Shown: piece by piece, positions 604 through 40,877 of the stretch | How the letters are laid out: each line of letters begins with the position of its first letter | Numbering within the stretch: the first letter of the stretch is position 1 | Made by a program: the position numbers and the translations under genes | The notes under the pieces: model-generated | The model's input: the letters and a program-made list of their open reading frames with translations, nothing else | Told to the model about the DNA's origin: nothing | Database searches by the model: none | Assembly: GCA_017457155.1 (NCBI GenBank) | Contig: JAFTHZ010000004.1 | Location: forward strand, 7,798-71,797 | From: Ruminococcus sp. | Lineage (GTDB): Bacteria; Bacillota; Clostridia; Oscillospirales; Acutalibacteraceae | Direction of reading: 5' to 3' | DNA length: 64,000 bases

Positions 604-3258
604 ATGGAGAGAGTTATGACAAACACAGAGAAGAGAGTATACGAAATAAAGCAGCCCTCATCAGACGGAAAAAGAAAGGTGTATCCCATAGTGAAAAGAT
701 GCCTGGATGTTTTCTTTTCGGGATTATTGACCCTTGTTCTGTTTCCTGTTTTTGTGATTATTGCTTTGCTTATTTCCTGCACAAGCAAGGGATCCCCATT
801 TTTCGTTCAGCAGAGAGTGGGCAAGGATAAAAAGCTGTTCCCGATAATTAAGTTCCGCACTATGTACAAAGATACGGACAGGGATGTTCCTACTCATCTT
901 CTGGACGACCCAGCTCGTTTCCTCACTCCTGTAGGCAAGGTGCTCAGAAAGCTGAGTCTTGACGAGCTGCCTCAGCTGCTTAACATTTTTGCAGGTCAGA
1001 TGTCCTTCATCGGTCCCCGTCCTGCGCTCTGGAATCAGGACGACCTGGTGGCTCTGCGCGACAAGTGGAACGCAAACTCCGTTCGTCCCGGCCTGTCGGG
1101 TTGGGCACAGGTCAACGGCAGAGATGAACTGGCGCTTCCTGTCAAGGCAAGGTTCGACGGAGAGTATGTAGAAAATATGAGCTTTGGCTTTGACTTTATG
1201 TGCCTTGTGAGGACCTTCACCTCTGTTCTCTCTGCCAAGGGAGTCAAGGAGGGTGGCACAGGCTCCGACAAAAACACTCCCAAAAAAATCTGTATGGTGA
1301 CTACCATCTCAAAAGCCTTCCAGTGGTTTGTGTCCGACTCAGCAAAGAACTTCTCTGAGAAGGGATTTGACGTAACCGTTATGTGCGGAGAGATGGACGA
1401 AGAATTCATCAGAAAGCACGAGAAGTTTGCAAAATGCAGACCTCTGTCTATAAAGAGAGGCACAGACATAAAATCAATCACTGCCACTATCAGGGAGATG
1501 AAACAGATCTTCAAGGAAGAGCAGTTCGATATTATTCAGTATTCAACTCCCAATGCAGCACTCTGTTGTACGCTGGCAGGTGGGTTCAGAAAGATTCCCA
1601 TCCGTGTTTACGGCCAGTGGGGAGTGCGCTACGTTGGATTCAAGGGGCTGAAGCGATTTGTTTTCAAGCTGATTGAGAAGTTCACCTGCTCGGGTGCTAC
1701 TCACATCTGTTCCACAAGTCCAAAAAATATGGCTTTTGCTATCTCCGAGAAGCTGTGCAGAAAGAACAAGATTTCTGTTATCGGCAAGGGCGGCACCATC
1801 GGAGTTGATTTCTCTGTGTATGATATAACAAAAAAAGCAGAGAACAGAGAGAAAATAAGATCCAGATACAAAATTGATGACAGCACCTTTGTGTTCAGCT
1901 ATATCGGCCGACTCAATGCAGACAAAGGTGTAGGAGAGCTCCTCAGCGCATACAGAGCCCTTCTTGCGGAGTATCCCGACACAAGGCTGTTCCTTGTGGG
2001 AATGGACGACAGCACAAATCCCCCTGACCCCGAGCTCCTTCAGTGGGCGAGAGGATGCGATAAGGTTATCTTCACAGGTGGAGTTGCTCCCGAGCTTGTG
2101 CCCGAGTATATGGCTGCTACGGATATTCTGGTCCATCCTACATACAGAGAAGGTTTTTCTATGGTGCTTCAGGAGGCAATGGCAATGGCGCTTCCCATAA
2201 TCACCACCGATGTACCCGGACCCAGTGAGGTTATCCTCAATGGTGAGACGGGAATCCTTGTTCAGGACCACAGCGACAAGGCTCTCTATGATGAGATGAA
2301 GGCTCTGATGAGCGATCCTGTTCGTCGGGAGCGCTATGCATCAAATGGCAGAAGAAGAGTCGAGCTTTTCTTTGCACGTCCTGTTATGCTCCAGAATATA
2401 TACACTCACTATTGCAGGCTGCTGGGTGTTGAGAACCAGCACATTAAGCTGATGTACCTTACCTCTAATCCTGAGGCGGCGGTTCAGGCAGAGAACGCAG
2501 GCGCAGACAGAATCTTCCTCGACCTGGAGATTATGGGCAAGGAAGAACGTCAGGGTCATCTGGATACAGTTGTGTCCCACTCAAGCATTGAGGATGTGGC
2601 AAAGCTTCGGGCGGCTGTGCATAAAGCAGAGCTTCTTGTCAGATGTAATCCTGTCCATCCCGCGCTTGGCAAAGAGATTGACCGCATGATCCGCGATGGT
2701 GCTGATATTATAATGCTGCCATACTTCAAGACTGTCGAGGAGGTTCAGACCTTCCTGGAGCTTGTGGGAGGCAGAGTCCGCACGGTTCTGCTTTTTGAGA
2801 CAGCAGAGTCTGTGGAGCTTGTGGATAAGATACTTGAACTTCCTGATATTGACGAGGTCTATATCGGTCTCAACGACCTGCATCTGAGCTACGGTATGAC
2901 CTTTATGTTTGAGCTTCTGGCAGACGGAACCGTTGAGAGACTGTGCGATAAGTTCAGAAAGCGCGGTATACCCTACGGATTCGGCGGAATTGCAAAGATC
3001 GGAGAAGGTCTGCTCAAGAGCGACGATGTTATCGGTGAGCACAAGCGTCTGGGTTCCACCTGCGCAATACTCTCCAGAACCTTCCGCAACGAGGTGGACC
3101 AGAGCCGTCCCATAGACGACTTCAGAGGAGAACTGATTCTTCTGCGTCGCAGAGAGAATCAGGTTTCCCAGTGGACAGAAGAGCAGTTTGAAGAGAACAG
3201 ACTGCGCGTATGCTCAGCGGTGAAGAGTATCGTTGATATGAAGAAAGTAGCGAGGTAA
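604..3258 (+). CDS. Trifunctional fusion: priming phosphoglycosyltransferase (CapM-like) + GT4 glycosyltransferase + HpcH/HpaI aldolase/citrate-lyase-family domain
   Basis: N-term KFRTM..SLDELPQLLNI..GPRPALWNQ..PGLSGWAQVNGRD (sugar transferase); middle YIGRLNADKG..HPTYREGFSMVLQEAMA (GT4); C-term KLMYLT..GADRIFLDLE..LLFET..YIGLNDLHLS (aldolase TIM barrel); one uninterrupted frame; start may be ATG 616. Confidence 0.85.
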   Translation: MERVMTNTEKRVYEIKQPSSDGKRKVYPIVKRCLDVFFSGLLTLVLFPVFVIIALLISCTSKGSPFFVQQRVGKDKKLFPIIKFRTMYKDTDRDVPTHLLDDPARFLTPVGKVLRKLSLDELPQLLNIFAGQMSFIGPRPALWNQDDLVALRDKWNANSVRPGLSGWAQVNGRDELALPVKARFDGEYVENMSFGFDFMCLVRTFTSVLSAKGVKEGGTGSDKNTPKKICMVTTISKAFQWFVSDSAKNFSEKGFDVTVMCGEMDEEFIRKHEKFAKCRPLSIKRGTDIKSITATIREMKQIFKEEQFDIIQYSTPNAALCCTLAGGFRKIPIRVYGQWGVRYVGFKGLKRFVFKLIEKFTCSGATHICSTSPKNMAFAISEKLCRKNKISVIGKGGTIGVDFSVYDITKKAENREKIRSRYKIDDSTFVFSYIGRLNADKGVGELLSAYRALLAEYPDTRLFLVGMDDSTNPPDPELLQWARGCDKVIFTGGVAPELVPEYMAATDILVHPTYREGFSMVLQEAMAMALPIITTDVPGPSEVILNGETGILVQDHSDKALYDEMKALMSDPVRRERYASNGRRRVELFFARPVMLQNIYTHYCRLLGVENQHIKLMYLTSNPEAAVQAENAGADRIFLDLEIMGKEERQGHLDTVVSHSSIEDVAKLRAAVHKAELLVRCNPVHPALGKEIDRMIRDGADIIMLPYFKTVEEVQTFLELVGGRVRTVLLFETAESVELVDKILELPDIDEVYIGLNDLHLSYGMTFMFELLADGTVERLCDKFRKRGIPYGFGGIAKIGEGLLKSDDVIGEHKRLGSTCAILSRTFRNEVDQSRPIDDFRGELILLRRRENQVSQWTEEQFEENRLRVCSAVKSIVDMKKVAR

Positions 3259-3266: not shown

Positions 3267-4253
3267 ATGTTCTTTAGCATAATAATCCCTATGTACAACG
3301 TGGAGCGTTATGTAGGCAAGTGTCTCGAAAGTCTCCTGTCACAGAGTATGGAAGACTTTGAGATAATTGCTGTTGATGACGGCTCAACAGACAATACCCT
3401 GCAGACAGTGAAGGACACCGCTCAGGGAGACACCAGAGTCAAGGTTTTCAGCAAGGAGAACGGCGGCCAGTCTACTGCCCGCAACTACGGTCTGAGACAA
3501 AGCAGCGGTGACTATGTAATATTTATCGACAGCGATGATTTTGTGCTGTATGAGGATTTTCTGGCAACAATCCGCACAGAGATCGAGAAGACCCGTGCAG
3601 ATGTGGTTATGTACAGATATCATAAGTACTTTGAGAATCGCTCTCCTCAGCTTGAGAAATGCGGTTACTCCTTTGCTGCTGTCCAGTCGGTGACAGATGT
3701 GGCACAGCTGATTCCTGTACTTGCGGCAGAGGATGCCTACTACGGGTCTGCATGGACAAAGGCTGTGCGCCGCAGTCTGCTGATTGATAATAACATTGAA
3801 TTTGACGAGAACCTCCGCTGTGAGGATATTGACTGGAGCTATCGGATAATTGAGAAAGCACAGAAGATATCCTGCGTTGACAGAGAGTTCCTTGCATACA
3901 GACAGAGGGAGGGCTCTGTGACTCATCAGGGGTCTCTGAGAAATGCCGAAGACTTTCTCAGTACGGTGGAGATATACAAGCGCAGGTACGAGTCCCCTGA
4001 CCTTCCCCTTGACAAGGAGCTTGTGGAGGGACTTCTTGCTACCCTGGCAAAATACTACTCCAATCTGCTCATAAACTACGGCAGAATCAAGGGCAAGGAC
4101 AGAAAGAAACTCAGAAAGCGTCTCAAGTCGCTTTCGCCCTTGCTGGAGTATTCATCCAGCTCAAGACCCAGGACGGTCCGCAAATTTTATCGGTTGTTCG
4201 GATTCAACCTGACAGTGATAGCAATAGGCTTGTTGGATAAGATAAGAGGCTGA
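3267..4253 (+). CDS. GT2 glycosyltransferase
   Basis: SIIIPMYNVE, VDDGSTD, NGGQSTARN, FIDSDD motifs. Confidence 0.92.
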   Translation: MFFSIIIPMYNVERYVGKCLESLLSQSMEDFEIIAVDDGSTDNTLQTVKDTAQGDTRVKVFSKENGGQSTARNYGLRQSSGDYVIFIDSDDFVLYEDFLATIRTEIEKTRADVVMYRYHKYFENRSPQLEKCGYSFAAVQSVTDVAQLIPVLAAEDAYYGSAWTKAVRRSLLIDNNIEFDENLRCEDIDWSYRIIEKAQKISCVDREFLAYRQREGSVTHQGSLRNAEDFLSTVEIYKRRYESPDLPLDKELVEGLLATLAKYYSNLLINYGRIKGKDRKKLRKRLKSLSPLLEYSSSSRPRTVRKFYRLFGFNLTVIAIGLLDKIRG

Positions 4254-4276
4254 CAGGCGATTTTTTGGAGATATAT

Positions 4277-5581
4277 ATGGACAGACTTCCAAGGGTATTG
4301 ATACCCTCAATCAACGTCTGGCAGGACACAGGCTCTGTCCGTACCCTGCCCGAGATATTTTCCTGTTGGGACAAGGACAAGGTTGCACAGATATATACTA
4401 AAGCAGGCTTGCCCGACACCTGCGTGTGCGACAGGTTCTTCCGCATTAATGAGAATGCCGTTATTAAGAGCATCTTCAAGAGGAAGATACAGACCTCCTC
4501 TGTGGTGTACAACACCCACGATACATACAGCGAGGCTGAACAGCAGGAGATAGACTCACAAAAGAAAAGATACAGCTCCGCATCCAAAAAGCAGAGCTGG
4601 CTCATGAGCTTGTGTCGGGAGCTGGTGTGGCTTGTGGGAAAATGGAAGACCCCCGAGCTTGATCGTTTTGTGGATGAGTTTGACCCCGAGATACTGTTTG
4701 TTCCCGTATACCCTGTGGTGTACATGTCCAGACTCCAGCTGCATATTATCAAGCGCACAAAGAAGCCTGTGGTGTGCTATCTGTCAGATGACAACTATTC
4801 CTACAAGGCCTGTGGAAAGAACCCTTTGGCATATATCCATCGGTTCTGGCTGCGCAGGGGTGTACGGAAGATTATGAGGCACTGTGATCAACTCTTTGTT
4901 ATTGCTCCCAAGCAGAAGGAGGAGTATGACAGGATCTTCGGCACAAACAGTGAGCTTCTGACCCGCTCCATAGATTACAGCAAGACTAACTGTGACGAGC
5001 ATGAGGTGCACACACCTTTGCAGATGATATATACCGGAAAACTGGGAATCGGAAGAGACATCACCATAGCCCGCGTGGCGCAGGCGGTGGAGGCTATTAA
5101 CTCTCAGGGTGAGCGTATCCGATTCAGCGTGTACTCGGGAGACACTCCCGGTAATGAGCTTATGAATCAGCTGAGCAGGGGAGGAAACCAATTCTGCGGA
5201 AGCGTCACCTCTGACAAGATAGAGAAGCTCCAGAGAGAGTCTGATATAACTCTCTTTGCAGAGTCACTGGATAAGAAATACCGCAACGCTGCCAGACTAT
5301 CTTTTTCCACAAAGCTCACCGACTATTTCAGTAGCGGTCGCTGTGTGTTTGCTGTGGGCAGCGAGGACATCGCCCCTATGGACTATCTTATCCGAGAGGA
5401 TGCAGCGATTACGGTGACGGATTACGCGCAGATCGAGGGGAAACTCAGACAGCTGTGCGACAATCCCGAGATAGTTAAAGAATACGGCAAAAAAGCCTTT
5501 GAGTGCGGCAAGCGCAATCATAACAAAGAACAGGTCCTGAGTAACTTCAAAGAAGTTATGCTTCAGCTTGTGAAGGACTGA
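4277..5581 (+). CDS. Putative GT-B fold glycosyltransferase
   Basis: YTGKLG and SFSTKLTDYF motifs of divergent GT4-like enzymes; operon context; GGAG RBS before ATG 4277. Confidence 0.7.
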   Translation: MDRLPRVLIPSINVWQDTGSVRTLPEIFSCWDKDKVAQIYTKAGLPDTCVCDRFFRINENAVIKSIFKRKIQTSSVVYNTHDTYSEAEQQEIDSQKKRYSSASKKQSWLMSLCRELVWLVGKWKTPELDRFVDEFDPEILFVPVYPVVYMSRLQLHIIKRTKKPVVCYLSDDNYSYKACGKNPLAYIHRFWLRRGVRKIMRHCDQLFVIAPKQKEEYDRIFGTNSELLTRSIDYSKTNCDEHEVHTPLQMIYTGKLGIGRDITIARVAQAVEAINSQGERIRFSVYSGDTPGNELMNQLSRGGNQFCGSVTSDKIEKLQRESDITLFAESLDKKYRNAARLSFSTKLTDYFSSGRCVFAVGSEDIAPMDYLIREDAAITVTDYAQIEGKLRQLCDNPEIVKEYGKKAFECGKRNHNKEQVLSNFKEVMLQLVKD

Positions 5582-5613
5582 TAAACCCAATTGATGAAAG
5601 GAGGAGAGAAGCT

Positions 5614-6801
5614 ATGAAGGTTCTGCAGATAAACTCTGTATACGGAGTTAAGAGTACAGGCAGAATAGCCTACGACCTGGTTCAGCTTCAGGAGAAAAAC
5701 AATATGGAAGCTTTTGTTGTCTCAGGTGAGGGTAGCTTTGATTCTCCCAATGTGTACGTGATGAGCGGAAAGCTGTACCAGAAGTTAAACATACTTCTCA
5801 CGCGACTTTTCGGCAGACACGGTTTTTACAACAAGTTTGCTACCAGAAGGCTTATCAGATATATGGACAAGGTGTCCCCTGATGTGATACATCTGCATAA
5901 TATCCACGGACACTATATCAACATAAAGCTTCTGTTTGAATATATACAGAGGAAGAATATCCCTGTGGTATGGACCCTGCACGATTGTTGGGCGTTTACA
6001 GGTCATTGTCCTCACTTTGATTATGTGGGGTGTGAAAGATGGCGGGAGGGCTGCGGCAACTGCCCCCAGCAGAAGGGCTATCCCATCTCCTTGTTCTTTG
6101 ACCGCTCCAAAAGGAACTTTGCAGACAAAAAGCAACTCTTCACAGGGGTAGAGAAGATGCATATTGTGACTCCCTCAAGGTGGTTGGCAGAGCTGGCCGA
6201 GCAGTCCTTCCTGGGCAAATATCCTGTGAGCGTTGTCAACAATGGTATCGATACAGATGTGTTCTCTCCTTCTGTGTCCGATATGAGAGAAAGACTAGGG
6301 CTTTCTGACAAGTTTGTCATACTGGGAATTGTCAGCAACCTGAACAGTACCAAGGGTGGACAATATTTTCTCAAAATGTCAGAAAAACTCAGGGAGGATG
6401 AGCAGATCGTTCTGCTCTCTCTGGAAGAGACAGAGAATCTTCCGAAGAATATCACAGCACTCCCTCGTACTGAGAGTGCACATGAGCTGGCACAGATTTA
6501 CTCTATGGCAGACGTTTTTGTGAATCCTACTCTTCAGGATACTTTTTCTATGATAAACCTGGAGGCTTTGTCCTGCGGACTTCCTGTTGTTACCTTCAGA
6601 ACCGGCGGCTGCTGTGAAGCGGTGACGGAGGAGTGCGGAGTGCTGGTAGAAAAGGGAGATGAAAATGCCCTGTACGAGGCTGTCTCCAGAGTCAGACAAG
6701 GAGAGTTTTCGTCATCTATCTCTCGTCAAAGGGGACTTGAGTTTGACAGGGAGATATGCTTCAGCAAGTATATTGATATATACAAAGATATCGTAAAATG
6801 A
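5614..6801 (+). CDS. GT4 glycosyltransferase (WcaC-like)
   Basis: IHLHNIHG, WTLHDCWAFTGHC, NPTLQDTFSMINLEALSCG. Confidence 0.9.
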   Translation: MKVLQINSVYGVKSTGRIAYDLVQLQEKNNMEAFVVSGEGSFDSPNVYVMSGKLYQKLNILLTRLFGRHGFYNKFATRRLIRYMDKVSPDVIHLHNIHGHYINIKLLFEYIQRKNIPVVWTLHDCWAFTGHCPHFDYVGCERWREGCGNCPQQKGYPISLFFDRSKRNFADKKQLFTGVEKMHIVTPSRWLAELAEQSFLGKYPVSVVNNGIDTDVFSPSVSDMRERLGLSDKFVILGIVSNLNSTKGGQYFLKMSEKLREDEQIVLLSLEETENLPKNITALPRTESAHELAQIYSMADVFVNPTLQDTFSMINLEALSCGLPVVTFRTGGCCEAVTEECGVLVEKGDENALYEAVSRVRQGEFSSSISRQRGLEFDREICFSKYIDIYKDIVK

Positions 6802-6819
6802 TTTTTTTGGGAGAAACGG

Positions 6820-7896
6820 ATGTTAGTTTGGGTTCTTATGCTCTTCGGCATCATACTGGTCAGGTTCCTGATTCCTGACAGTATCGGAGAGAAAAAGAAA
6901 AACTTAATATTCCTGAGCATAAGCTTTTGCATCGTGGTGTTTGTTATGGGCAGCAGAAGCCCGCATTTGCTGGGCAGTAATGACCTGATGAGCTACTTCA
7001 GATGCTATGGAAATTCCATGAACTACTCTCTTGCGCAAATGATGGAATTCTCTACACTGGAGACGGGATACCTGGTGCTCAACCAGATACTTGCATGGCT
7101 CGTACCCTGGAACTACTTTATCCTGTATTTTGAGGCGGCGTTCTGTACTTTTGTTATGTTCTGGTATATTTATCGCAATGCCAACAGTGTGTTCCTTGCG
7201 GTGATTGTATATCTGTGTCTTGGTCCTTGGCAGTTCTTCCTGACAGGATTCAGGCAGACTATCGCTATATGTATCTGTTTTATTGCCTTTGAGTTTATGA
7301 AGAAGCATAAGACCCTGTGGGATCTGGGCGCCTTGGTGCTGATTGCTCTTGCAGCAGCTATCCACACGACCGCATGGATATTCTTGCTTACCTTCCTCAT
7401 CAGAAAGGTAAAGATCACCAAAAAGGTTATTATCTATTCTGTCATGCTGACTCTGCTGATGCTTGTTTTCATCGACGAGATCGTAGATTACGGAAATCAG
7501 GTTCTGGAGAAGAACTACGTAATGGCATATCACGGCAACGAGTTCGGAGGACTTATCCCGATTCTCATTTATGTGGCGGCCCTCATTCTGTGTTATCTCA
7601 TCTGGGGATGGAACCATGCCTATGTGGAAGAGAACGCCTTTGAGATTGCCATGCTGCTGTTTGGTCTTTGTGTGTATCTGACGAGATACACATCCCTGAT
7701 TATGGAGCGCATAAGCTTCTATTTTACACCTGTAATTACTATCGTGCTGTCAAATGCTATTACCCGCCAGAGGACAAACACGGTGCGCAATATTATTTAT
7801 GTAATCTGTATTGTACTGTGTATACTGCTGTATCTTTACAGAGCAGATGTGCAGTATGGTGAATACCATTTTTACTGGGAGTATATGGGAGGATAA
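6820..7896 (+). CDS. EpsG-family polysaccharide polymerase (Wzy)
   Basis: About 10 TM segments; ETGY, RQTIAI and IHTTA motifs typical of the EpsG family. Confidence 0.82.
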   Translation: MLVWVLMLFGIILVRFLIPDSIGEKKKNLIFLSISFCIVVFVMGSRSPHLLGSNDLMSYFRCYGNSMNYSLAQMMEFSTLETGYLVLNQILAWLVPWNYFILYFEAAFCTFVMFWYIYRNANSVFLAVIVYLCLGPWQFFLTGFRQTIAICICFIAFEFMKKHKTLWDLGALVLIALAAAIHTTAWIFLLTFLIRKVKITKKVIIYSVMLTLLMLVFIDEIVDYGNQVLEKNYVMAYHGNEFGGLIPILIYVAALILCYLIWGWNHAYVEENAFEIAMLLFGLCVYLTRYTSLIMERISFYFTPVITIVLSNAITRQRTNTVRNIIYVICIVLCILLYLYRADVQYGEYHFYWEYMGG

Positions 7897-7902
7897 GGAA
7901 AA

Positions 7903-9054
7903 ATGAAAGTAACTTTTATTTCCTGTTATCTCAATCACCACCAGACCGACCTTTGTCTGGAGCTTCAGAAGTGTTGTGACGAGTTTTACTTTGTTGCCAC
8001 AGACCCTATGCCTGAGTATCGGGCACAGCTTGGATATGATGAGGACACTGACAGCAAGCACGACTTCATTGTGAAGGCCTACAATGGCGAGAACGAGGAT
8101 GTGGTCAGACAGCTTCTGACAGACAGCGACGTAGTGATATTCGGTTCCTGTCCCGATGAGTATATAGACTACAGAGCGGGACTGGGAAAGTTGTCATTTA
8201 TATATACAGAGCGTTTCTTCAAGAAAGGAACCTGGCGCAGGTTTATTCCTCGCACACGCAAGAAGGTTGTCAACAGAGTCATCAGGTACTCAGATTTCCC
8301 TGTGTATATTCTGTGTGCAGGTGCTTTTGTGGCATATGACCTGAAGTTGTGCGGATTCGATACAGACAAGTGCTTTCGCTGGGGATATTTCCCTCAGGTT
8401 AATCACTATACCCACCGTCCCAAGCGGGATAACAAGCCTGTGAAACTTTTGTGGGCAGGCAGAATGCTCGATTGGAAGCACCCTTGCGAGGCGCTGTATG
8501 CCGCAAAGGAACTTGCAAAGGCGGGGGTTGACTTTGTTCTGGATATTATCGGCACAGGGGAGGAAGAGCAAAAGCTCAAAGAGCTTGCCCGTAAGCTGAA
8601 TCTAAGCGACAAGGTGAACTTCACCGGAGCTATGTCTCCTGATGAGGTTAAGGCGCATATGGAAAATGCCGATGTTTTTCTGATGACCAGCGACTGTTAC
8701 GAAGGTTGGGGTGCAGTTGTCAATGAGGCCATGAGCACTGGTTGCTGTGTTCTTGCCAGCAGTGTTGCAGGCTGTGTGCCCTACCTGATAGATGACGGAA
8801 AAAGCGGTGTCATTTACCAATACGGCAACAGAAAAGATATGGTACAAAAGCTCCTTCTGCTTGTAAAGGACAAGAAGCTGAGAGATGAAATCGGCCTTGC
8901 TGCCATGAGGACAGTACAGGACGAGTACAGCGCACAGACAGCCGCCCGAAGGCTGACAGAGTTCGTAAACTCAGAGGACAAAACAAAGGTTCTGTATGAA
9001 TCGGGACCTATGTCCAAAGCAGAGGTTGTAAAGAATAATTGGTACAAGGCCTGA
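7903..9054 (+). CDS. GT4 glycosyltransferase
   Basis: WAGRMLDWKHP, EGWGAVVNEAMSTG. Confidence 0.9.
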   Translation: MKVTFISCYLNHHQTDLCLELQKCCDEFYFVATDPMPEYRAQLGYDEDTDSKHDFIVKAYNGENEDVVRQLLTDSDVVIFGSCPDEYIDYRAGLGKLSFIYTERFFKKGTWRRFIPRTRKKVVNRVIRYSDFPVYILCAGAFVAYDLKLCGFDTDKCFRWGYFPQVNHYTHRPKRDNKPVKLLWAGRMLDWKHPCEALYAAKELAKAGVDFVLDIIGTGEEEQKLKELARKLNLSDKVNFTGAMSPDEVKAHMENADVFLMTSDCYEGWGAVVNEAMSTGCCVLASSVAGCVPYLIDDGKSGVIYQYGNRKDMVQKLLLLVKDKKLRDEIGLAAMRTVQDEYSAQTAARRLTEFVNSEDKTKVLYESGPMSKAEVVKNNWYKA

Positions 9055-9088
9055 GAGCAATCGGGCAGACCTTTTAGGTTTATTTGGA

Positions 9089-10615: not shown

Positions 10616-10647
10616 TTACAAATATATTGCACTAAAGGTGAATAGAT

Positions 10648-19104: not shown

Positions 19105-19110
19105 CTCTCT

Positions 19111-20127: not shown

Positions 20128-20143
20128 AAGATTTGTCTCCATA

Positions 20144-31391: not shown

Positions 31392-31441
31392 AAGAAAACT
31401 CCTTATATATATAGAAAAGAAAGTAGAGGAACTTATCCTTG

Positions 31442-32506: not shown

Positions 32507-32520
32507 AGCAAATTTCCCTC

Positions 32521-33498: not shown

Positions 33499-33500
33499 AA

Positions 33501-34814
33501 TCAAAGCCTCCAGTAAATATAGCCTGCGGTTTCAAATTCCTTACGGCTTAGCAGTCCCTTGATGTCAAGGAGGACAGGTGTGTGCTCTCCTGAGTAGAAC
33601 TTCTGCATATCCTCGATGGTGAGGGAGGAGAACTCCTTGTGAGAAACTGCAAGGATGACAGCATCCATGTTGTTGATGGTGCTGATATCAACGAACTCAA
33701 TTCCGTACTCGTGACGTGCCTCGTCTGCATCAGCAACAGGGTCTGCGATAACGGGAGTAATGCCGTATTCCTTCAGCTCGTTTACTATATCAATGATACG
33801 AGTGTTTCTTGTGTCGGGGCAATTCTCCTTGAAGGTAAAGCCCAAAATGGCAACCTTGGCGGACTTTACGGGGATATCTGCCTGGATCAGCTTCTTCACC
33901 ATAGACTCAACAACATATTTGCCCATGTCGTCGTTGATACGTCTGCCTGAGAGGATAATCTGTGAGTGATATCCCATCTGCTCTGCCTTGTAGGTCAGAT
34001 AGTAGGGATCAACACCGATGCAGTGACCGCCAACAAGTCCGGGGAAGAACTTCAGGAAGTTCCACTTGGTGCCTGCTGCCTCGAGGACAGCCTTTGTATC
34101 AATGTTCATCTTGTTGAAGATGATGGAAAGCTCGTTCATAAATGCGATGTTGATATCGCGCTGGGAGTTCTCGATAACCTTTGCGGCCTCGGCAACCTTG
34201 ATGCTCTCTGCTCTGTGAACACCTGCCTCAACAACCAGCTCGTATACCTTTGCAACCTCGTCCAGGGTCTCCTCGTCCATACCTGAGACGATCTTGACGA
34301 TAGTCTCTAGGCGGTGCACCTTGTCACCGGGGTTGATTCTCTCGGGAGAGTAGCCTATCTTGAAATCTGTGCCGCACTTAAGTCCTGACTCTTCCTCCAG
34401 AATGGGAATACACACATCCTCTGTAACGCCGGGATAAACGGTGGATTCGTATACAACGATGGAACCCTTTGTCAGGTACTTGCCCAGAATATGGGATGCA
34501 CCCTCTACGGGGGTCAGGTCAGGGGTGTGGTCGGCGTTTACGGGAGTGGGAACTGCAACAATGTGGAACTTGGCTTCTCTGAGTCTCTCAGGGTCGCTGG
34601 TAAAGTCAACTGCACAGTTTTTGATGGCCTCGTCACCAACCTCTTTTGTGGGGTCGATGCCTTTTTTGTACAGGTCGATTTTTGCTTTGTTAACATCAAA
34701 GCCGATAACATCCACCTTCTTTGAGAAGGAGACTGCAATAGGCATACCAACGTAGCCCAGACCGACCAGGGAGATTTTTTCTTCTTTGTTTACGATTTTC
34801 TGATAAAGTGACAT
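33501..34814 (-). CDS. UDP-HexNAc 6-dehydrogenase (TviB/WbpO/CapL-like)
   Basis: GLGYVG, VAVPTP, YESTVYPG, YSPERINPGD, KVIENSQRD, PGLVGGHCIGVDPYY, FKENCPD. Confidence 0.93.
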   Translation of the reverse strand: MSLYQKIVNKEEKISLVGLGYVGMPIAVSFSKKVDVIGFDVNKAKIDLYKKGIDPTKEVGDEAIKNCAVDFTSDPERLREAKFHIVAVPTPVNADHTPDLTPVEGASHILGKYLTKGSIVVYESTVYPGVTEDVCIPILEEESGLKCGTDFKIGYSPERINPGDKVHRLETIVKIVSGMDEETLDEVAKVYELVVEAGVHRAESIKVAEAAKVIENSQRDINIAFMNELSIIFNKMNIDTKAVLEAAGTKWNFLKFFPGLVGGHCIGVDPYYLTYKAEQMGYHSQIILSGRRINDDMGKYVVESMVKKLIQADIPVKSAKVAILGFTFKENCPDTRNTRIIDIVNELKEYGITPVIADPVADADEARHEYGIEFVDISTINNMDAVILAVSHKEFSSLTIEDMQKFYSGEHTPVLLDIKGLLSRKEFETAGYIYWRL

Positions 34815-34816
34815 TG

Positions 34817-35935
34817 TTATTCCTCCGTATTCTGTATATCCAGATGATTGAGCAAAGTTTCGTTTACTTTTCGGACGTCAAATCTTTCCTTGCAATACTC
34901 GTAGCTTGCATCTCCGAGCTTTTGGATGAGGGTTGGGTCCTCGATGAATCGACACATGGTATCAGCCAGCGCCTGAACATCCCCTACGGGAACCAGGAAA
35001 CCTGTCTGCCCATCGATGACCGTCTCGCGACATCCGGGGGCATCGGTGACAATTGCTGCGCGTCCCATGGACATTGCCTCTTGCACGGTTCTTGGGATTC
35101 CCTCCCGGTAGGAGGGCAGAACAAAGACTGAGCATTGTCGGTAATATATTCTTACATCAGGGTGCTCGGGGTAGTACTCGATGGCACCGCTGTCGATGTA
35201 CCTGCGAACTTCCTCTTTACTAAGAGAGTCCTGCATGGTTTCGTCTATTTCGCCCAGATACATTATCCTGACGTGGGGGTATCTGTCGTGGACTATCTGT
35301 GCCGCCTGCAGGTATTCGCCCACACCCTTGCAGCGCAGCGCTCTGGACAGCATAAAGAACACAGGTTCCTTGGGTAGTTCTGTCCGTTCGAATCGTTCCA
35401 TATTGACACCCGAACCGCTGACCATACAGCACTTGCTCTCTTTGAGGAGCTTCATACCGGTGAAGTCATTTCTGTCATCAGGATTCATAAAGACCACCTT
35501 ATGTGCACAGGCAAAGCCCATGCGGTACAGCATCTTCACGATTATTCTGATGATTTTGGCTTTTGTTGTAGCTGCGGCAAATACATATCCCGCTCCTGCT
35601 ATCATGGAGTAGCGATGGGGTACCCCCGCCAGCTTTGCGGCGATGGCTCCGTAGATGACGGGTTTGATGGTATAGCCAAAGGTCACGTCGGGTTTTTCTT
35701 TTCTGAAGAGTTTTCTCAGGGCGAGAATGTATTTCAGGTCAGAGACAGCGTTGACACCTGTTTTGTCCATGGGAATACGCACGAATCTTGCGCCCAGGGC
35801 CTCGATTTTGTCAACGTCAATTTCGTTGGGGCCTGTGACTATTACCTCATAGCCACGGCTGACAATGTCTTTGATAAGGTCTCCTCTGAAATTCCACGCC
35901 GTTCTGTTCTTCGGCGAAATCAGTACGAATTTCAA
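34817..35935 (-). CDS. GT4 glycosyltransferase (PglA-like)
   Basis: NFRG.LI, YTIKPVIYG, GSGVN, KGVGEY, PSYREGIP..EAM, TDAPGCRE. Confidence 0.9.
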   Translation of the reverse strand: MKFVLISPKNRTAWNFRGDLIKDIVSRGYEVIVTGPNEIDVDKIEALGARFVRIPMDKTGVNAVSDLKYILALRKLFRKEKPDVTFGYTIKPVIYGAIAAKLAGVPHRYSMIAGAGYVFAAATTKAKIIRIIVKMLYRMGFACAHKVVFMNPDDRNDFTGMKLLKESKCCMVSGSGVNMERFERTELPKEPVFFMLSRALRCKGVGEYLQAAQIVHDRYPHVRIMYLGEIDETMQDSLSKEEVRRYIDSGAIEYYPEHPDVRIYYRQCSVFVLPSYREGIPRTVQEAMSMGRAAIVTDAPGCRETVIDGQTGFLVPVGDVQALADTMCRFIEDPTLIQKLGDASYEYCKERFDVRKVNETLLNHLDIQNTEE

Positions 35936-35955: not shown

Positions 35956-37014
35956 TTATCTGTTACAGTCTGCAGAATCGATGAGACTGTCCATAAGCTT
36001 TTGGATGGGATAGCCTACCTCTGCCATCATCATGGGATACATACTGATCTCGGTGAAGCCGGGCAGGGTGTTTATCTCGTTGAAGATAACTTTGTTTGTG
36101 TCCTTCTCAAGGAAGAAGTCAACTCGTGAGAGTCCGTTGCAACCCAGAGCGGTGAAGATTCTGGCGGCATAATCCTGCACGGTGGCATCTGTGCCCTCGG
36201 GGAGGGAGGGGGAGGTGAATGTCTGGGAGGAGGAGTTGTTGTATTTTGCCTCGTAACTGTAGAAGGTGTCGCCTGCTACTGCCTCTCCTGCACCGGAGGT
36301 CCTGAGTCCCTCTTTGGTCTCAAGCACTGCGCACTCCAGTTCTCTGCCTGTGATTGCTTCTTCGATGAGTACCTTGGTGTCGTGTCTGAGTGCCAGCTCA
36401 ACTGCACTGATAAGCTGGTCTCTGTCTTCTGCTTTGGACACACCCTGTGAGGAGCCTGACTTGCAGGGTTTGACAAACATGGGGTATCCCAGCTTTTCTT
36501 CTGCCTTCTGTATGTAGCTCTGATCATCGCCCAGTCTTACCAGAACAAAGTCTGCCTGAGGAATATCTCCGATACTGTCAACGATAATCTTTGTGTATGC
36601 TTTGTCCATGGACATACCCGAGGAGACCACTCCGCATCCCACATAGGGGATACCGCAAAGCTCGAAGAGTCCCTGAATGGTTCCGTCCTCGCCGTTCTTT
36701 CCATGGAGAACAGGGATGATAACGTCGATATTGACGAGGGTGTTCTTTCCGTCCAGAAGGATCAGACCCTTGGCGGATGTGTTGGGAGAGAGAACGCAGG
36801 AGACATTGGAGCTTTCCTGTGTCCATCTGCCGTCGGGAATGAGAGATGTGTCGCCTGTGTAGTAGATCCAGTCTCCGTTTTTCTTGATTCCAACATAATG
36901 CTTTTGGTATTTATCTTCAGAGATGTTGTTTACAAAGCTCATTACAGATTTACATGAGACTTCGTGTTCTGTGGAGTTACCTCCAAATATGATGAGAATG
37001 CTTTTCTTTGACAC
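35956..37014 (-). CDS. ddl: D-alanine--D-alanine ligase family protein
   Basis: FGGNSTEHEVS, PVLHGKNGEDGTIQG, MDK, KP..SGSS.G, FYSYEAKY omega loop, RVDFF, NEINTLPGFT..SMYP. Confidence 0.9.
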   Translation of the reverse strand: MSKKSILIIFGGNSTEHEVSCKSVMSFVNNISEDKYQKHYVGIKKNGDWIYYTGDTSLIPDGRWTQESSNVSCVLSPNTSAKGLILLDGKNTLVNIDVIIPVLHGKNGEDGTIQGLFELCGIPYVGCGVVSSGMSMDKAYTKIIVDSIGDIPQADFVLVRLGDDQSYIQKAEEKLGYPMFVKPCKSGSSQGVSKAEDRDQLISAVELALRHDTKVLIEEAITGRELECAVLETKEGLRTSGAGEAVAGDTFYSYEAKYNNSSSQTFTSPSLPEGTDATVQDYAARIFTALGCNGLSRVDFFLEKDTNKVIFNEINTLPGFTEISMYPMMMAEVGYPIQKLMDSLIDSADCNR

Positions 37015-37070: not shown

Positions 37071-37991
37071 TTACAGTTCGGATTTTCCGAAGTTGAATTC
37101 TGTGAGGTTTTTATAGATAAGGCGGAACATACGGGTTCCGGTTTCATCTGAGGCATAGCTGTTGTGAGGGGTGATGATGACCCTGGGGTTGGTCCACAGG
37201 GGGCTGTTCTCGCTGAGGGGTTCCTCCTCAAAAACATCCAGGGCAACTCCAAGGAATTTCCCTTCGGAGAGGAGATTATGCAGAGCCTCTTCGTCCAGAA
37301 CCTTGCCGCGGGCAACGTTGATGAGAATGCTGTCGTCCTTCATGGCACTCAGATATTTGTGAGAGAAGAGACCTTTTGTGGAGTCGTTGAGAGGTAGGGT
37401 CAGTACAACTGCATCCACGGTGGGCAACAGCTCCGGCAACCTTTCCATATAGTAAAAGTCATCGATGAATTCTGACTTACTGTCGTATATATCAGCTCCC
37501 AGAACCTGCGCTCCGAAAGCCTGCAGGCGTCTGGCACACTCAAGTCCTACGGAACCTGTGCCTACAATGAGGATCCTCTTGTCGGTTATCTCACGCAGGT
37601 TGCGGTGTTTTTGCCATGTTTTCTTTTTTTGTTGAGAGTAGAATCTGTGGGATTCTTTGTATATTTCCAGAAGCTTCAGCACTACCCACTCTGCCATAGG
37701 GATGCTGTAGACCCCTCTGGCATTGAACAAGGATACTCCGTTGGCAGCAAAATATCCCACGGGAGCCCTGTCAAATCCTGCGCTGGTGAGCTGTACGACC
37801 TTCAGGTTGCTGAATCTCTCGGGAGAGTTGTATCTGAAGAGGTCGTTGCAAACTACTGCGTCAAATACCGAGCAGTCCAGGGTGAGTTCTTCCAGCTCGT
37901 TTTGGACGAAGGTGATTTCAAAGCCGCTGTTTTTCAGTTTGGTTAGTTGTTCCTCGGTGTATGAGAACGCTCCTGTCAGAAGTAGTTTCAT
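37071..37991 (-). CDS. D-isomer-specific 2-hydroxyacid dehydrogenase
   Basis: SAGFD, NARGVYS.PMAE, GTGSVG, LPL, INVARG, LDVFEEEPL, ITPH; true start most likely ATG 37991. Confidence 0.88.
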   Translation of the reverse strand: MKLLLTGAFSYTEEQLTKLKNSGFEITFVQNELEELTLDCSVFDAVVCNDLFRYNSPERFSNLKVVQLTSAGFDRAPVGYFAANGVSLFNARGVYSIPMAEWVVLKLLEIYKESHRFYSQQKKKTWQKHRNLREITDKRILIVGTGSVGLECARRLQAFGAQVLGADIYDSKSEFIDDFYYMERLPELLPTVDAVVLTLPLNDSTKGLFSHKYLSAMKDDSILINVARGKVLDEEALHNLLSEGKFLGVALDVFEEEPLSENSPLWTNPRVIITPHNSYASDETGTRMFRLIYKNLTEFNFGKSEL

Positions 37992-38037: not shown

Positions 38038-38676
38038 TTATCTGTCGGCCAACGCCTCTTGCTTCTGAGACTGTGCTTTGGCTGCTGTCTCGGTTGTGTT
38101 TTCGTTGTCTGCATTGGTGAAAACCTTGAACACAGTCATGAAGAGAATCTTGATGTCCAGCCATAGGGACATATTCCTTGTGTACCATACGTTGAGCTGG
38201 ATGCGCTTGTTCCATTCAACTTCTTTTCTACCGTTCACCTGAGCCCAGCCTGTGATTCCGGGACGAACGTCAAACATATGAAGCTGCTCCTCTGAGTAGT
38301 CGTCGATAGGCCAGGGGTGATATGTAAGGGGAGGTCTGGGGCCTATGAGACTCATATCTCCTTTTAGGATGTTAACAAGCTGAGGCAACTCATCAATGCT
38401 GGTGGCACGGATGATACGGCCTGTCTTTGTTACGCGGGTATCGTTCTTTCCGGAGTATACTCCGGAGCCTGTATGCTCAGCACCCACGCACATACTGCGA
38501 AACTTGTAGATGTGGAAAGGCTTTCCACCTTTTCCCAGTCGTTCCTGCTTGAATATAACAGGGCCCTTGGACTCAATCTTGATGGCAATTGCAGTCAGGA
38601 GCATTATGGGTGAGAGAATAATTATGCCAAGTAATGAAAGGACAAAATCCATTGTTCTTTTGAAGAATCGATACAT
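38038..38676 (-). CDS. Priming phosphoglycosyltransferase (sugar transferase) of cluster B
   Basis: KR..D, KFRSM, SIDELPQL.N..GDMSLIGPRP, PGITGWAQVNGR. Confidence 0.93.
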   Translation of the reverse strand: MYRFFKRTMDFVLSLLGIIILSPIMLLTAIAIKIESKGPVIFKQERLGKGGKPFHIYKFRSMCVGAEHTGSGVYSGKNDTRVTKTGRIIRATSIDELPQLVNILKGDMSLIGPRPPLTYHPWPIDDYSEEQLHMFDVRPGITGWAQVNGRKEVEWNKRIQLNVWYTRNMSLWLDIKILFMTVFKVFTNADNENTTETAAKAQSQKQEALADR

Positions 38677-38742: not shown

Positions 38743-38770
38743 ATTATATCATATATTGATAAAAAATCAA
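38743..38770 (-). promoter_or_regulatory. Putative SigA promoter of cluster B
   Basis: Minus-strand TTGATT-16 nt-TATAAT with extended TG. Confidence 0.55.
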
Positions 38771-38882
38771 TTATAATGTAATAAAATTTCGAAAAAACAT
38801 GCATTTATCGCAATGTGTGAATAATGATTACTTTTTTTGAATTAAATGTATTATTATGCGTTCATTTTAAAGGGGATTATTG

Positions 38883-38911
38883 TTGACTTTGGGACAATTC
38901 TGTATTATAAT
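38883..38911 (+). promoter_or_regulatory. Putative SigA promoter of capD-glmS
   Basis: TTGACT-17 nt-TATAAT. Confidence 0.7.
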
Positions 38912-38972
38912 TTCAATGAGTTATTGCGTAAAATAGGCTTAATATATAAAATTTAGCGTATGGTGTAATCTT

Positions 38973-40877
38973 ATGAAAGAATTTAACGCGAAAAAAATTG
39001 TTCTGATGATAGCTGATGCTCTCATTCTGGCGGCAACAGGATTTCTATCAAATCTGTTGCTTATGTGGATAGACATCGCAAACGATGCCACAGGGGCAAA
39101 GATGCTCCAGCTGGAGTGGTCTTCTATGACACTTGTGGTGGGTATGACAGTCGTGTTCTCCTTTTTTACTCTCTATGTTGCGGGAGCCTATAACTTCTAC
39201 TGGAGGCTTCTGGGAAAGCATGAATATCTTTCCTGCATACTGGGTACCACCGCGGGTATGGCTCTGACGGCTCTGCTCACGTACTACTTTGGCGTTTTGG
39301 ACAGCGGCAAGCCCTGGGTTTTGCTGTCAATGCAGTATGTGCTGTCGCTGGTTGCTATGTGCGGATTCAGGGATTTTGCAAAGCATACGGTTGTGAAGCT
39401 TACCGAGGTGGGTCGCTCTGAGAACTATGAGCGTACCCTGATAGTAGGCGCGGGTCGTGCAGCACATATGATTCTTGTGGATATTGAAAATGCAAAGAAG
39501 GATCCCAACAATCCCTCTCGTAATATCTTGCCTGTGGGACTTGTGGATGATGACAGAACAAAGTACGGAACCAAGCTACTGGGAGTGCCCGTGCTGGGCA
39601 ACACCGATGATATTCCCGAACTTTGCAAGAAGAATGGAGTATCACTTATTGTTTTTGCGATTCCCTCATGCACCGAGGATGAGCGCCAGCGCATACTCTC
39701 TCTGTGCTCCAAGACCGAGTGCAAAATCAAGATGTTGCCTTATCTGAGTCAGTTACTCTTTGATGATAACAAACCTCAGCTTCTCAATCAGGTGAAGGAT
39801 ATCCAGATTGAGGACCTGCTGGGCAGAGACCCCATAACCTTTGACAAGCAAAAGACACAGGATTTTATCAAGGATAAGGTTCTGATGGTTACAGGTGGCG
39901 GCGGTTCTATCGGCAGCGAGCTTGTGAGACAGATAGCAAAGTATTCTCCCAAAAAGATCATCATCATTGATATTTATGAGAATAACGCATACGATATACA
40001 ACAGGAACTTCTTCTTGAGAGCGATGTACATCTGGATGTTGTGACGCTGATTGCATCTGTCAGAGATTATGACAAGATGGACAGGATATTCGATCAATAC
40101 CGTCCCGATGTGGTGTTCCACGCAGCAGCCCACAAGCACGTTCCACTTATGGAGACCAGCCCTGAAGAAGCGGTAAAGAACAATATTTTCGGCACCTTTA
40201 ATATTGCAACATTGGCAGAAAAGTACGATGTCAGCAAGTTTATTATGATATCCACGGACAAGGCGGTAAATCCCACCAACGTTATGGGTGCAACCAAGAG
40301 ATGCTGTGAGATGATAGTCCAGTACAAGGCACAGCACTCAAGCAAAACCGAGTTCGTTACCACCAGATTCGGAAATGTTCTGGGATCTAACGGCTCTGTT
40401 ATTCCCTTGTTCAGAAGACAGATCGAGAACGGAAAACCCGTTACAGTGACTCACCCTGATATCATCAGGTATTTTATGACTATTCCCGAGGCTGTGTCCC
40501 TTGTTCTTCAGGCAGGAGCTATGGCTAACGGCGGAGAGATATTTGTTCTTGATATGGGTGATCCCGTCAAGATCACAACCCTGGCAGAAAACCTCATCAG
40601 AATGTACGGCAAGGTTCCCTACAAGGATGTTGAGATTCGGTTTACGGGCCTGCGGCCCGGCGAGAAGCTTTTTGAGGAGCTTCTTATGAACGAAGAAGGC
40701 CTCAAATCCACCGAGAACAAGAAGATTTTTATTGGTAACCAGATACCCATTGACGAGGATGACCTGCTGAAGAAGCTGGAGGTTCTCAGGACCTATGCAG
40801 AGAATAACGACAGTGACAAGACCGTCGAGATGCTCAGCGAGATTGTACCTACCTTTAAGCATAAGACTAACGCTTAA
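38973..40877 (+). CDS. Membrane-bound UDP-GlcNAc 4,6-dehydratase (CapD/PglF family)
   Basis: Four N-terminal TMs, GAG, IEDLLGR, TGGGGSIGSEL, HAAAHKHVP, STDKAVNPTNVMGATK, RFGNVLGS, GLRPGEKL. Confidence 0.94.
   Translation: MKEFNAKKIVLMIADALILAATGFLSNLLLMWIDIANDATGAKMLQLEWSSMTLVVGMTVVFSFFTLYVAGAYNFYWRLLGKHEYLSCILGTTAGMALTALLTYYFGVLDSGKPWVLLSMQYVLSLVAMCGFRDFAKHTVVKLTEVGRSENYERTLIVGAGRAAHMILVDIENAKKDPNNPSRNILPVGLVDDDRTKYGTKLLGVPVLGNTDDIPELCKKNGVSLIVFAIPSCTEDERQRILSLCSKTECKIKMLPYLSQLLFDDNKPQLLNQVKDIQIEDLLGRDPITFDKQKTQDFIKDKVLMVTGGGGSIGSELVRQIAKYSPKKIIIIDIYENNAYDIQQELLLESDVHLDVVTLIASVRDYDKMDRIFDQYRPDVVFHAAAHKHVPLMETSPEEAVKNNIFGTFNIATLAEKYDVSKFIMISTDKAVNPTNVMGATKRCCEMIVQYKAQHSSKTEFVTTRFGNVLGSNGSVIPLFRRQIENGKPVTVTHPDIIRYFMTIPEAVSLVLQAGAMANGGEIFVLDMGDPVKITTLAENLIRMYGKVPYKDVEIRFTGLRPGEKLFEELLMNEEGLKSTENKKIFIGNQIPIDEDDLLKKLEVLRTYAENNDSDKTVEMLSEIVPTFKHKTNA

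Follow-up and report, generated by a model that had tools for sequence, protein, structure and literature searches.

Here, we describe two surface-polysaccharide operons, clusters A and B, in a 64,000-nucleotide stretch of Ruminococcus sp. DNA (the window), whose aldolase and dehydrogenase genes lie 34 kb apart. The first gene of cluster A (604..3258, forward strand) is one open frame of 884 aa, in which Pfam places Bac_transf (aa 31-209; phosphoglycosyl transferase PGT_A), GT4 (aa 235-585; GT4_A) and HpcH_HpaI (aa 620-765) domains. The aldolase had been described in the initial annotation as fused to the cluster A priming enzyme; the single frame agrees, although the direct junction is to GT4. 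The remainder of cluster A (3267..11829, forward strand) encodes a GT2, a GT-like protein of unknown type (4265-5581; family present in 25/80 genome loci carrying the aldolase), two GT4 proteins, Wzy, Wzx and an NTP_transf_5 protein. On the reverse strand, cluster B contains PGT_B (38038..38676), a priming phosphoglycosyl transferase with an LTYHPW motif that belongs to an aldolase-linked subfamily and is the predicted loader of a branched sugar. It is followed by a D-2-hydroxyacid dehydrogenase (37071..37991), whose ATG at 37991 lies 46 nt past the PGT_B stop, directly after the priming enzyme as first noted. Next come a D-Ala-D-Ala ligase gene (ddl, 35956..37014), the sole copy in the genome and a housekeeping passenger, and GT4_B (34817..35935), which stands behind the dehydrogenase in most cassettes and likely adds the second sugar. 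A TviB- and TviC-like pair (32521..34814; best NCBIfam matches, both under cut-off), found in 10/13 loci of the same lineage, likely supplies UDP-GalNAcA. Cluster B also has two DegT aminotransferase genes (13288-14421 and 17992-19104), which the initial annotation omitted. Divergent from PGT_B, on the forward strand, is a CapD/PglF UDP-GlcNAc 4,6-dehydratase (38973..40877); promoter-like sites in the gap between them are at chance level (5 vs 3.8 +/- 2.0 expected).

The CapD/PglF assignment in the initial annotation is upheld: the 634-aa protein has an N-terminal membrane region, CoA_binding_3 and a Polysacc_synt_2 catalytic domain (413.8 bits), scores under the PseB and FnlA cut-offs, and has no second full-length copy in the genome; it is the predicted shared supplier of the 4-keto sugar. 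The dehydrogenase (PF02826, 177.9 bits; PF00389, 38.2 bits) has the two-domain fold, the GxGxxG motif and the Arg-Glu-His triad of D-2-hydroxyacid dehydrogenases, with R228 invariant and E257 and H276 conserved at >=90% in a 24-row alignment; it belongs to an aldolase-linked subfamily and is predicted to reduce the 2-oxo group of the branch.

The HpcH/HpaI-like aldolase domain (2440..3258, forward strand) belongs to a polysaccharide-specific family, and its predicted role is to attach pyruvate to the C4 ketone of a sugar. PF03328 matches it at 42.5 bits against a cut-off of 25, and its AF2 model (pLDDT 92.6) is a PK/HpcH barrel that aligns to 1dxe, 8adq and 3qz6 with Z about 19 and rmsd 2.3-2.4 A over 197 residues. 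Fold scores did not separate the classes (pyruvate kinase about 20, HpcH about 19, CitE about 17.8) and fold searches gave no identification of the donor substrate; an atlas search with a homolog returned its own family as sole result. In sequence, the family profile matches pyruvate aldolases at E 1e-9 to 1e-6 vs 1e-3 to 1e-2 for CitE-type lyases. Like the class II pyruvate aldolases (HpcH/HpaI, GarL, YfaU/RhmA, SwHKA), the domain has the barrel fold, metal-binding Glu and Asp (E120 in 149/149 and D146 in 148/149 members, in motifs that align to SwHKA) and an invariant Arg (R68, 143/144), which we take to be their enolate-stabilising Arg. It differs from them in its low identity (about 18-21%), its biosynthetic context, its predicted ketone acceptor, and an invariant D-x-E-x-x-G-K-x-x-R-Q loop that replaces the His motif: the family has D28-L-E30-I in place of D-x-E-H, and the missing His is presumably H45 of HpaI. 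The family comprises at least 7,795 proteins at E <= 1e-10 (7,993 scored) and 692 clusters at 50% identity (E <= 1e-30), and is present in 8/40 relatives and 5/300 sampled Bacteroidota genomes.

Relatives also carry GT4 fused to the aldolase, some with the PGT and others lacking it, the PGT part being found in just 5/15 closest loci at the thresholds of the neighbourhood survey. The aldolase is retained where PGT_A and GT4 are lost (L001, L003, L006, L007) and where all the rest of cluster A is lost (L004). GT4_A was considered as an aldolase-specific partner and rejected, since homologs of 35-44% occur in aldolase-negative genomes, one of them immediately behind a PGT. The PGT_B subfamily occurs in aldolase-positive genomes only and clusters, in the tree, with dehydrogenase-type cassettes, and GT4_B, PGT_B and the dehydrogenase are lost as a group in two genomes (G045 and G049). 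PGT_B is more likely than the fused PGT_A to be the working priming enzyme.

Across genomes, the dehydrogenase adjoins the aldolase in 45/80 loci and PGT_B does so in 46/80, all within the 65 loci outside the clade in which the genes are split, where about 45 have the aldolase positioned between PGT_B and the dehydrogenase; these locus and genome counts include kin and are thus non-independent. Within the split clade, 13/15 genomes with the cluster A aldolase carry the dehydrogenase at a separate locus, and all 13 loci retrieved hold the block of PGT_B and dehydrogenase with a divergent capD. Among 40 relatives, the dehydrogenase (3) and PGT_B (5) are confined to the 8 with the aldolase and are found in 0/32 aldolase-negative genomes. 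The minimal cassette is PGT-aldolase-dehydrogenase-GT4, and one contig of a viral collection carries CapD, PGT_B, aldolase and dehydrogenase. In 4/80 loci (L033, L035, L041, L050), the aldolase lies behind an FGGY kinase, away from polysaccharide genes. Three cassette types require 2 changes on the PGT tree and 11 on the aldolase tree, both from FastTree alone. That aldolase, dehydrogenase and PGT_B are one widespread cassette, and that this lineage conserves its division between two operons, holds strongly, as the co-occurrence and the two-operon arrangement first proposed would have it.

Other cassettes replace the dehydrogenase with Ldh_2, with a class IV aminotransferase and a decarboxylase, or with an amidotransferase. 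Of 25 metagenome loci flanked by 3.5 kb or more on each side, 22 have a dehydrogenase, the aminotransferase IV and decarboxylase pair, or AsnB, and the remaining 3 have an ATP-grasp ligase; the dehydrogenase and the amine pair are found together at 0/160 loci. Each of these alternative partners depends on a 2-oxo acid or carboxylate substrate, consistent with a pyruvate adduct. In a natural fusion (P0189; 3 members), the aldolase is joined to a CapD catalytic domain that is 49% identical to the CapD of the window vs 35% to FnlA; further fusions join the CapD N-terminus to the aldolase, the aldolase to the dehydrogenase, to Ldh_2 or to the decarboxylase, and a PGT to the aldolase. No locus in the viral collection has the aldolase-CapD fusion.

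CapD lies within 10 kb of the aldolase in 7/80 genome loci (3/38 with full flanks) and in 12/25 distant loci, and is immediately beside it in six (L026, L157, L204, L210, L216, L217); one plasmid (W01) has the aldolase with CapD absent. Co-occurrence of CapD at the genome level, part of the check initially put forward, is uninformative because CapD is near-core in the genus (33/40 relatives, including 25/32 aldolase-negative ones). An AatB-like gene is divergent from capD in 4 aldolase-negative members of the genus, so the position of CapD beside PGT_B may merely mark an insertion site.

As first reported for the window, no CapN or PglD is recognisable: the genome (89% complete) yielded no match to PglD_N and no ortholog of a CapN-like SDR from one relative, whose CapN label we assume from its position behind a CapM-like PGT and a motif. 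Matches to hexapeptide models occur on three contigs of the genome (C11, C18, C23). The proposed exclusion of CapN and PglE is borne out in part: CapN-like genes are found in 0/23 aldolase-positive vs 7/32 aldolase-negative genomes, but two aldolase loci have CapN-like genes (L180, L207) and others have PglE-like (L021, L056, L212, L230, L231) or PglD-like genes (L052, L230, L231). The stricter statement that the aldolase never occurs with CapN was rejected, since the first SDR queries gave 0/174 loci and a better query found these two. With this one query, no CapN-like reductase that would consume the CapD product was found elsewhere in the genome. A third DegT gene, of AatB/PglE type, lies 2.2 kb before the window (G000:C3:4435-5640), and with AatB-like and AatC-like genes the genome likely already has a sink for that product. 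With this gene nearby, CapD near-core, and CapN-, PglE- and PglD-like genes at some aldolase loci, the argument from missing CapN/PglD is weak.

Taken together, the cassette probably makes a C4-branched, acidic nine-carbon sugar that is loaded to start a surface polysaccharide chain, its chemistry read from gene content. CapD would convert UDP-GlcNAc to the 4-keto-6-deoxy sugar, by chemistry already established for its family (PMC6441080). The Mg2+-dependent aldolase would then put pyruvate enolate on C4, which would become a tertiary alcohol bearing CH2-CO-COOH as its arm (+88 Da), and the dehydrogenase would reduce the arm to CH2-CH(OH)-COOH (+90 Da). PGT_B would move the sugar-1-phosphate onto undecaprenyl phosphate, after which GT4_B would add GalNAcA; CapD in this genome may be common to the cassette and an AATGal-type branch. 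In sister cassettes, the common aldol product would be converted to an amide (shewanellose type), undergo transamination and decarboxylation, or be coupled to an amino acid. We lean towards branching on the UDP-sugar rather than on the lipid carrier. The other order may have a parallel, especially for PGT_A, in WreU/WreQ of Rhizobium etli, where a 4-keto sugar is loaded on lipid first and modified later, the modification there being a simple reduction (available part of PMC11257628).

The predicted sugar resembles shewanellose, which we read as a nine-carbon sugar. Shewanellose of Shewanella putrefaciens A6 is a 2-acetamido-2,6-dideoxyhexose whose branch at C4 corresponds formally to an amidated aldol adduct of pyruvate (PMC4052302, in the part available). 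A distant locus (G334) has aldolase, AsnB, PGT and CapD with Neu/Leg, PtmA-like and WbuX/HisH/WbuZ-like genes, matching the polymer of shewanellose and an 8-epilegionaminic acid derivative given there, and several metagenome loci with aldolase, AsnB, PGT, CapD and nonulosonate genes also fit it. Unlike what is expected for shewanellose, this genome has the dehydrogenase and gave no ortholog match to the cassette amidotransferase (found in 7/13 sister loci) that would form the branch carboxamide, so a reduced free acid is predicted. C-branched bacterial sugars with established routes in the literature found are made by ThDP carboligases, among them yersiniose (YerE/F), erwiniose (ErwE/F/I/J) and caryophyllose (MMAR_2331/2332) (PMC9306805, available part). 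These acyl-branched routes, as described there, also extend a nucleotide 4-keto-deoxy sugar at C4 by a C-C bond and then reduce the branch with NAD(P)H, in clusters that include aldolase genes; there, however, the ThDP enzyme makes the bond in a step that releases CO2, for which the aldolase merely supplies the donor, whereas in the cassette the carboxylate would stay and the sugar would be an N-acetyl priming sugar. No ThDP carboligase was found in clusters A and B or among the scanned neighbours of the aldolase. CapD-CapN-CapM of S. aureus (PMC6441080) and PglF-E-D-C/AATGal share with the cassette a CapD-type dehydratase, a single tailoring step at C4 and a small monotopic PGT, and differ in that C4 is reduced or transaminated there while C-C bond formation is predicted here.

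The first alternative, which we consider unlikely, is that the aldolase-like domain has a different donor (such as the acetyl-CoA of SbnG/CitE-type enzymes) or a different acceptor (such as some other keto intermediate), with the CapD product going to AATGal only or used as an unchanged 4-keto sugar. SbnG and CitE-type enzymes have the same fold, the HpaI His is absent from the family, and the AatB-like and AatC-like genes offer a use for the product; moreover, several polysaccharides incorporate the unmodified 4-keto sugar (PMC3210612) and PGTs of the Cap5M cluster transfer it (PMC11257628, available part). An acetyl-CoA adduct, however, would leave the dehydrogenase, Ldh_2 and aminotransferase IV with no 2-oxo group as substrate, and both the closer likeness of the aldolase sequence to pyruvate aldolases and the existence of the aldolase-CapD fusion argue against this reading. 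Improbable as well is that the aldolase condenses pyruvate with a small aldehyde, that the dehydrogenase then reduces what is formed, and that the free hydroxy acid (or an amino acid or amine) is attached to an ordinary first sugar as acyl, amide or ether. A free 2-oxo acid is the proposed product of the aldolases in known acyl-branched sugar clusters (PMC9306805, available part), Acyltransferase_3 genes stand between aldolase and dehydrogenase in 6/80 loci, and full PglE/PglD loci could provide an amine for acylation. Against it, no aldehyde-supplying enzyme, CoA ligase, ACP or ThDP carboligase recurs among the 757 ORFs that lie at most 3 kb from the aldolase (573 labelled by BLAST; 50/125 unlabelled clusters scanned in Pfam, the other 75 being singletons), the minimal cassette consists of PGT, aldolase, dehydrogenase and GT4, and such a free acid does not account for the CapD fusion or PGT specificity. 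Finally, although dehydrogenase and ddl are adjacent in the window and in 11/13 loci of the split lineage, a VanH/VanA-like D-Ala-D-Lac unit independent of the aldolase is very improbable, as the dehydrogenase scores 85 vs a VanH cut-off of 540, ddl scores above the D-Ala-D-Ala (Ddl) cut-offs and under every Van model, the dehydrogenase outside the lineage directly follows the aldolase with ddl absent, and ddl persists where PGT_B and the dehydrogenase are lost.

The favoured route, pyruvate addition to the CapD ketone, is undescribed in the full-text literature searched, whose coverage excludes most subscription carbohydrate journals, so that absence from print is not established. In the same literature, no papers combine the aldolase with capsule or O-antigen terms and no shewanellose genes were found; the main text of a preprint on the PGT superfamily contains neither 'aldolase' nor 'HpcH' (PMC11257628). 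Some low-GC loci were considered as possible matches to published Fusobacterium O-antigens, and this was rejected, no link to the cassette appearing in the available parts of four papers (PMC12940168, PMC12413058, PMC9912281, PMC5560731).

More broadly, we put at about even chances that metal-dependent aldolases form a quaternary carbon on bacterial 4-keto-6-deoxy-GlcNAc, which would be a third use of this intermediate, after its reduction and its transamination, and would supply the route that shewanellose lacks, and that undescribed priming sugars arise in Clostridia, Bacteroidota and Proteobacteria (the last sampled by two near-identical plasmid loci only) by tailoring in modules (D- or L-reduction, amidation, amino-acid ligation, transamination with decarboxylation), every one of them paired with a PGT subfamily of its own, the pathway working from two operons in this lineage. 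If true, an aldolase that adds pyruvate to the ketone of a nucleotide sugar would be new glycan chemistry and possibly a catalyst for tertiary alcohols, shewanellose would gain a testable route, and a substrate would be assigned to an unannotated PGT subfamily. Given the size of the aldolase family, many gut commensals may display sugars that are missing from structure databases.

Here, we describe the gene context of an HpcH/HpaI-like aldolase domain (2440-3258, +), the sole PF03328 match in the window's genome (1.64 Mb, 89% complete). It ends the first gene of cluster A (604-11829, +), an 884-aa PGT-GT4-HpcH fusion (604-3258) whose PGT part is termed PGT_A. Cluster B runs from 38676 down to about 11873 (-), opening with a priming phosphoglycosyl transferase (PGT_B; 38038-38676), a D-2-hydroxyacid dehydrogenase (DH; 37071-37991), ddl, a GT4 (GT4_B; 34817-35935), TviB and TviC; the CapD/PglF dehydratase gene capD (38973-40877, +) is oriented away from it. 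All features named in the initial annotation were recovered with unchanged coordinates; it left out two DegT aminotransferases in cluster B, and a third, of the AatB type (G000:C3:4435-5640), lay outside the sequence available to it, 2.2 kb before the window's start. An AatC-like PGT lies on contig C12 (both Aat names are presumptive). The capD and AatB-type genes bracket the entire 35-kb polysaccharide region.

Several other genes were recorded. The polysaccharide operon contains the genome's only D-Ala-D-Ala ligase gene (35956-37014, -), an arrangement shared by 11 of 13 sister loci. A GT-like protein with weak GT4 matches (4265-5581, +), found in 25 of the best 80 of at least 544 aldolase loci, is a candidate transferase associated with the branched sugar. 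The segment 13288-16966 (-) encodes rmlA, rmlC and rmlB, then a DegT aminotransferase, with no rmlD within the cluster, and its product is possibly a dTDP-4-amino-4,6-dideoxy-L-hexose, not rhamnose. A D-cysteine-desulfhydrase-like PLP enzyme, PylC-like ATP-grasp and DesI-like DegT are consecutive (17992-21064, -), a candidate amino-acyl amino-sugar module, and an opine dehydrogenase and PaaK/F390-synthetase-like ligase pair in cluster B (30036-32524, -), not conserved with the aldolase cassette, is likely an N-(1-carboxyethyl)-amino acid decoration module. FnlA/B/C (L-FucNAc) genes are remote from the polysaccharide clusters (G000:C12:76051-79514) and within cluster A in relatives. Split transketolase genes (59448-61243, +), 18 kb from capD, were taken as housekeeping, outside the cluster.

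Proteins of the window served as queries to map the best 80 of at least 544 aldolase-family genome loci, of which the nearest named ones belong to Ruminococcus sp. and to MAGs of Clostridia. DH and PGT_B orthologs adjoin the aldolase in 45 and 46 of these 80, respectively, usually in the order PGT_B-aldolase-DH-GT4. Neither lies near the aldolase, among the matches listed, in the 15 closest loci (L001-L015, the split clade), where whole-genome searches place DH at another locus in 13 of 15 genomes and PGT_B in 12 of 14 (G054, the same genome as G014, being left out); all 13 fetched DH loci have capD divergent from PGT_B-DH, matching the window. The aldolase is present in 8 of 40 relatives; DH occurs in 3 and the PGT_B subfamily (at least 329 bits; remaining relatives at most 221 bits) in 5, all aldolase carriers, and each in 0 of 32 aldolase-negative relatives, although these genomes are kin and the counts non-independent trials. 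The fused PGT_A and GT4 are lost and the aldolase retained in L001, L003, L006 and L007, and the aldolase is the sole cluster A remnant in L004. In a small sample of three genomes without PGT_B and DH, two carry an aldolase that lacks one residue of the conserved K34-R37 loop, and in one the junction of the aldolase with GT4 is frameshifted. The genes and their linkage are thus observed directly: the co-occurrence of aldolase, DH and PGT and the two-operon split, both anticipated in the initial annotation, are borne out, the split being real and conserved. Because DH and PGT_B have moved yet occur, among the relatives, in aldolase carriers alone, and the aldolase outlasts its cluster A partners, it most likely serves cluster B.

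The AlphaFold model of the aldolase (pLDDT 92.6) shows a barrel of the PK/HpcH/CitE type, three families that structure scores fail to tell apart. Its profile matches to pyruvate aldolases have E-values of 1e-9 to 1e-6, versus 1e-3 to 1e-2 for acyl-CoA lyases. Among representatives, R68 is conserved in 143/144, E120 in 149/149 and D146 in 148/149, and an invariant D-x-E-x-x-G-K-x-x-R-Q loop stands at the presumed position of the HpaI His, which is absent. DH has the Arg-Glu-His triad.

Tailoring genes accompany the aldolase in 32 of 51 loci with at least 3.5 kb flanks among the best 80 of at least 544, and 14 of the 19 lacking one are the split clade; across the same best 80, an Asn-synthase-like amidotransferase is the partner in 12 and an Ldh_2 reductase in 4. 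A second set, from metagenomes, comprised 80 loci more distant than the first. The 25 of them flanked on both sides by 3.5 kb or more hold DH (11), a class IV aminotransferase with PLP decarboxylase (9), AsnB (2) or an ATP-grasp ligase (the remaining 3). DH and the amine pair share a locus in none of the 160 (80 genome, the best of at least 544, and 80 metagenome). Judged by family chemistry, all partners would act on a 2-oxo acid or carboxylate, and so fit the groups left by pyruvate addition, unlike acetyl-CoA addition. Scanning 21 representatives selected from 150 listed, we found the aldolase fused to the CapD catalytic domain, a CapD-like N-terminal region, DH, Ldh_2, decarboxylase, PGTs and GT4. 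In proteins P0139, P0133 and P0136, a CapD-like N-terminal membrane region is followed by the aldolase where the dehydratase domain would stand (clusters of 10 members for P0139 and 16 for P0133; Pfam backs the CapD-like part for P0139 alone). P0216 joins a class II aldolase to the HpcH-like aldolase, perhaps at a deletion junction. Seven loci (L161, L162, L167, L170, L175, L181, L210) have an aldolase-PGT-ATP-grasp ligase-GT cassette with nonulosonate genes, and CapD upstream in four; this type would yield an amino-acid amide of the branch.

The three cassette types require 2 changes on the PGT tree versus 11 on the aldolase tree (FastTree), which is consistent with one shared aldol product whose tailored forms are recognised by dedicated PGTs; co-inheritance would produce a similar pattern. 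Pyruvate as donor, the CapD ketone as acceptor, the product and the step order make up a reading that we regard as rather likely, in which pyruvate would be added at C4 of the 4-keto sugar, DH would reduce the adduct and PGT_B would load it. Alternatively, PGT_A, presumably CapM-like by a motif, may use the unmodified 4-keto sugar directly, and branching might take place on UndPP. This is suggested because Cap5M-cluster PGTs can load the 4-keto sugar ahead of tailoring on lipid (PMC11257628); the 4-keto sugar is also known as a glycan residue in its unmodified form (PMC3210612).

Several findings weigh against the reading with the CapD ketone as acceptor. CapD is present in 33 of 40 relatives irrespective of the aldolase, and with the AatB-type and AatC-like genes its product is already accounted for in the window's genome, so the initial argument from missing CapN and PglD carries little weight. 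Since capD and the AatB-type gene are direct divergent neighbours in four aldolase-negative genus members (G009, G013, G018, G021), the gap between them, where clusters A and B sit in the window, appears to be a hotspot at which glycan cassettes insert. CapD lies within 10 kb of the aldolase in 7 of the best 80 of at least 544 genome loci and 16 of 80 metagenome loci. The supposed exclusion of CapN/PglE holds as a tendency (CapN-like genes in 0 of 23 aldolase-positive versus 7 of 32 aldolase-negative genomes) but is not strict, with a CapN-like gene present in L180 and L207 and PglE- or PglD-like genes in at least six aldolase loci. L033, L035, L041 and L050 place the aldolase behind an FGGY kinase and away from polysaccharide genes. 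For the amidotransferase, the substrate could be GalNAcA rather than the branch, because its gene often lies between TviB and TviC, but the gene also flanks the aldolase with no TviB in view at L025, L042, L128 and L134. A ThDP route, as for erwiniose and caryophyllose (PMC9306805), was rejected since no ThDP enzyme accompanies the cassette in clusters A and B or among the aldolase-neighbouring genes scanned, and a VanH/VanA-like reading of DH and ddl was also rejected.

Shewanellose has a three-carbon branch, and its 8-epilegionaminic acid partner bears an acetamidino group. In S. putrefaciens A6 this C4-branched FucNAc-type sugar is accompanied by a derivative of 8-epilegionaminic acid (PMC4052302). 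The aldolase was found in 5 of 300 further sampled Bacteroidota-phylum genomes. Genome G334 has consecutive aldolase-AsnB-PGT-CapD, preceded by NeuB, NeuC, a cytidylyltransferase, a PtmA-like SDR and Gfo/Idh oxidoreductase, WbuX, HisH and a WbuZ-like gene, and L154 resembles it; G334, tied to no strain of known structure, has the gene set that a polymer of shewanellose with such a partner would need. At L144 (4961-6376) and L148 (5071-6489), a 471-aa Rossmann-plus-epimerase SDR follows aldolase-PGT-AsnB, at CapD's position in G334. A full-text literature search, with thin coverage of subscription journals, returned no published account of the aldolase cassette or of shewanellose biosynthesis. 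In contrast to shewanellose, an amide, the product in the window's organism, whose genome on searching has no cassette amidotransferase, is consequently predicted to be a reduced free acid, which would bear a 4-C-(2-carboxy-2-hydroxyethyl) branch.
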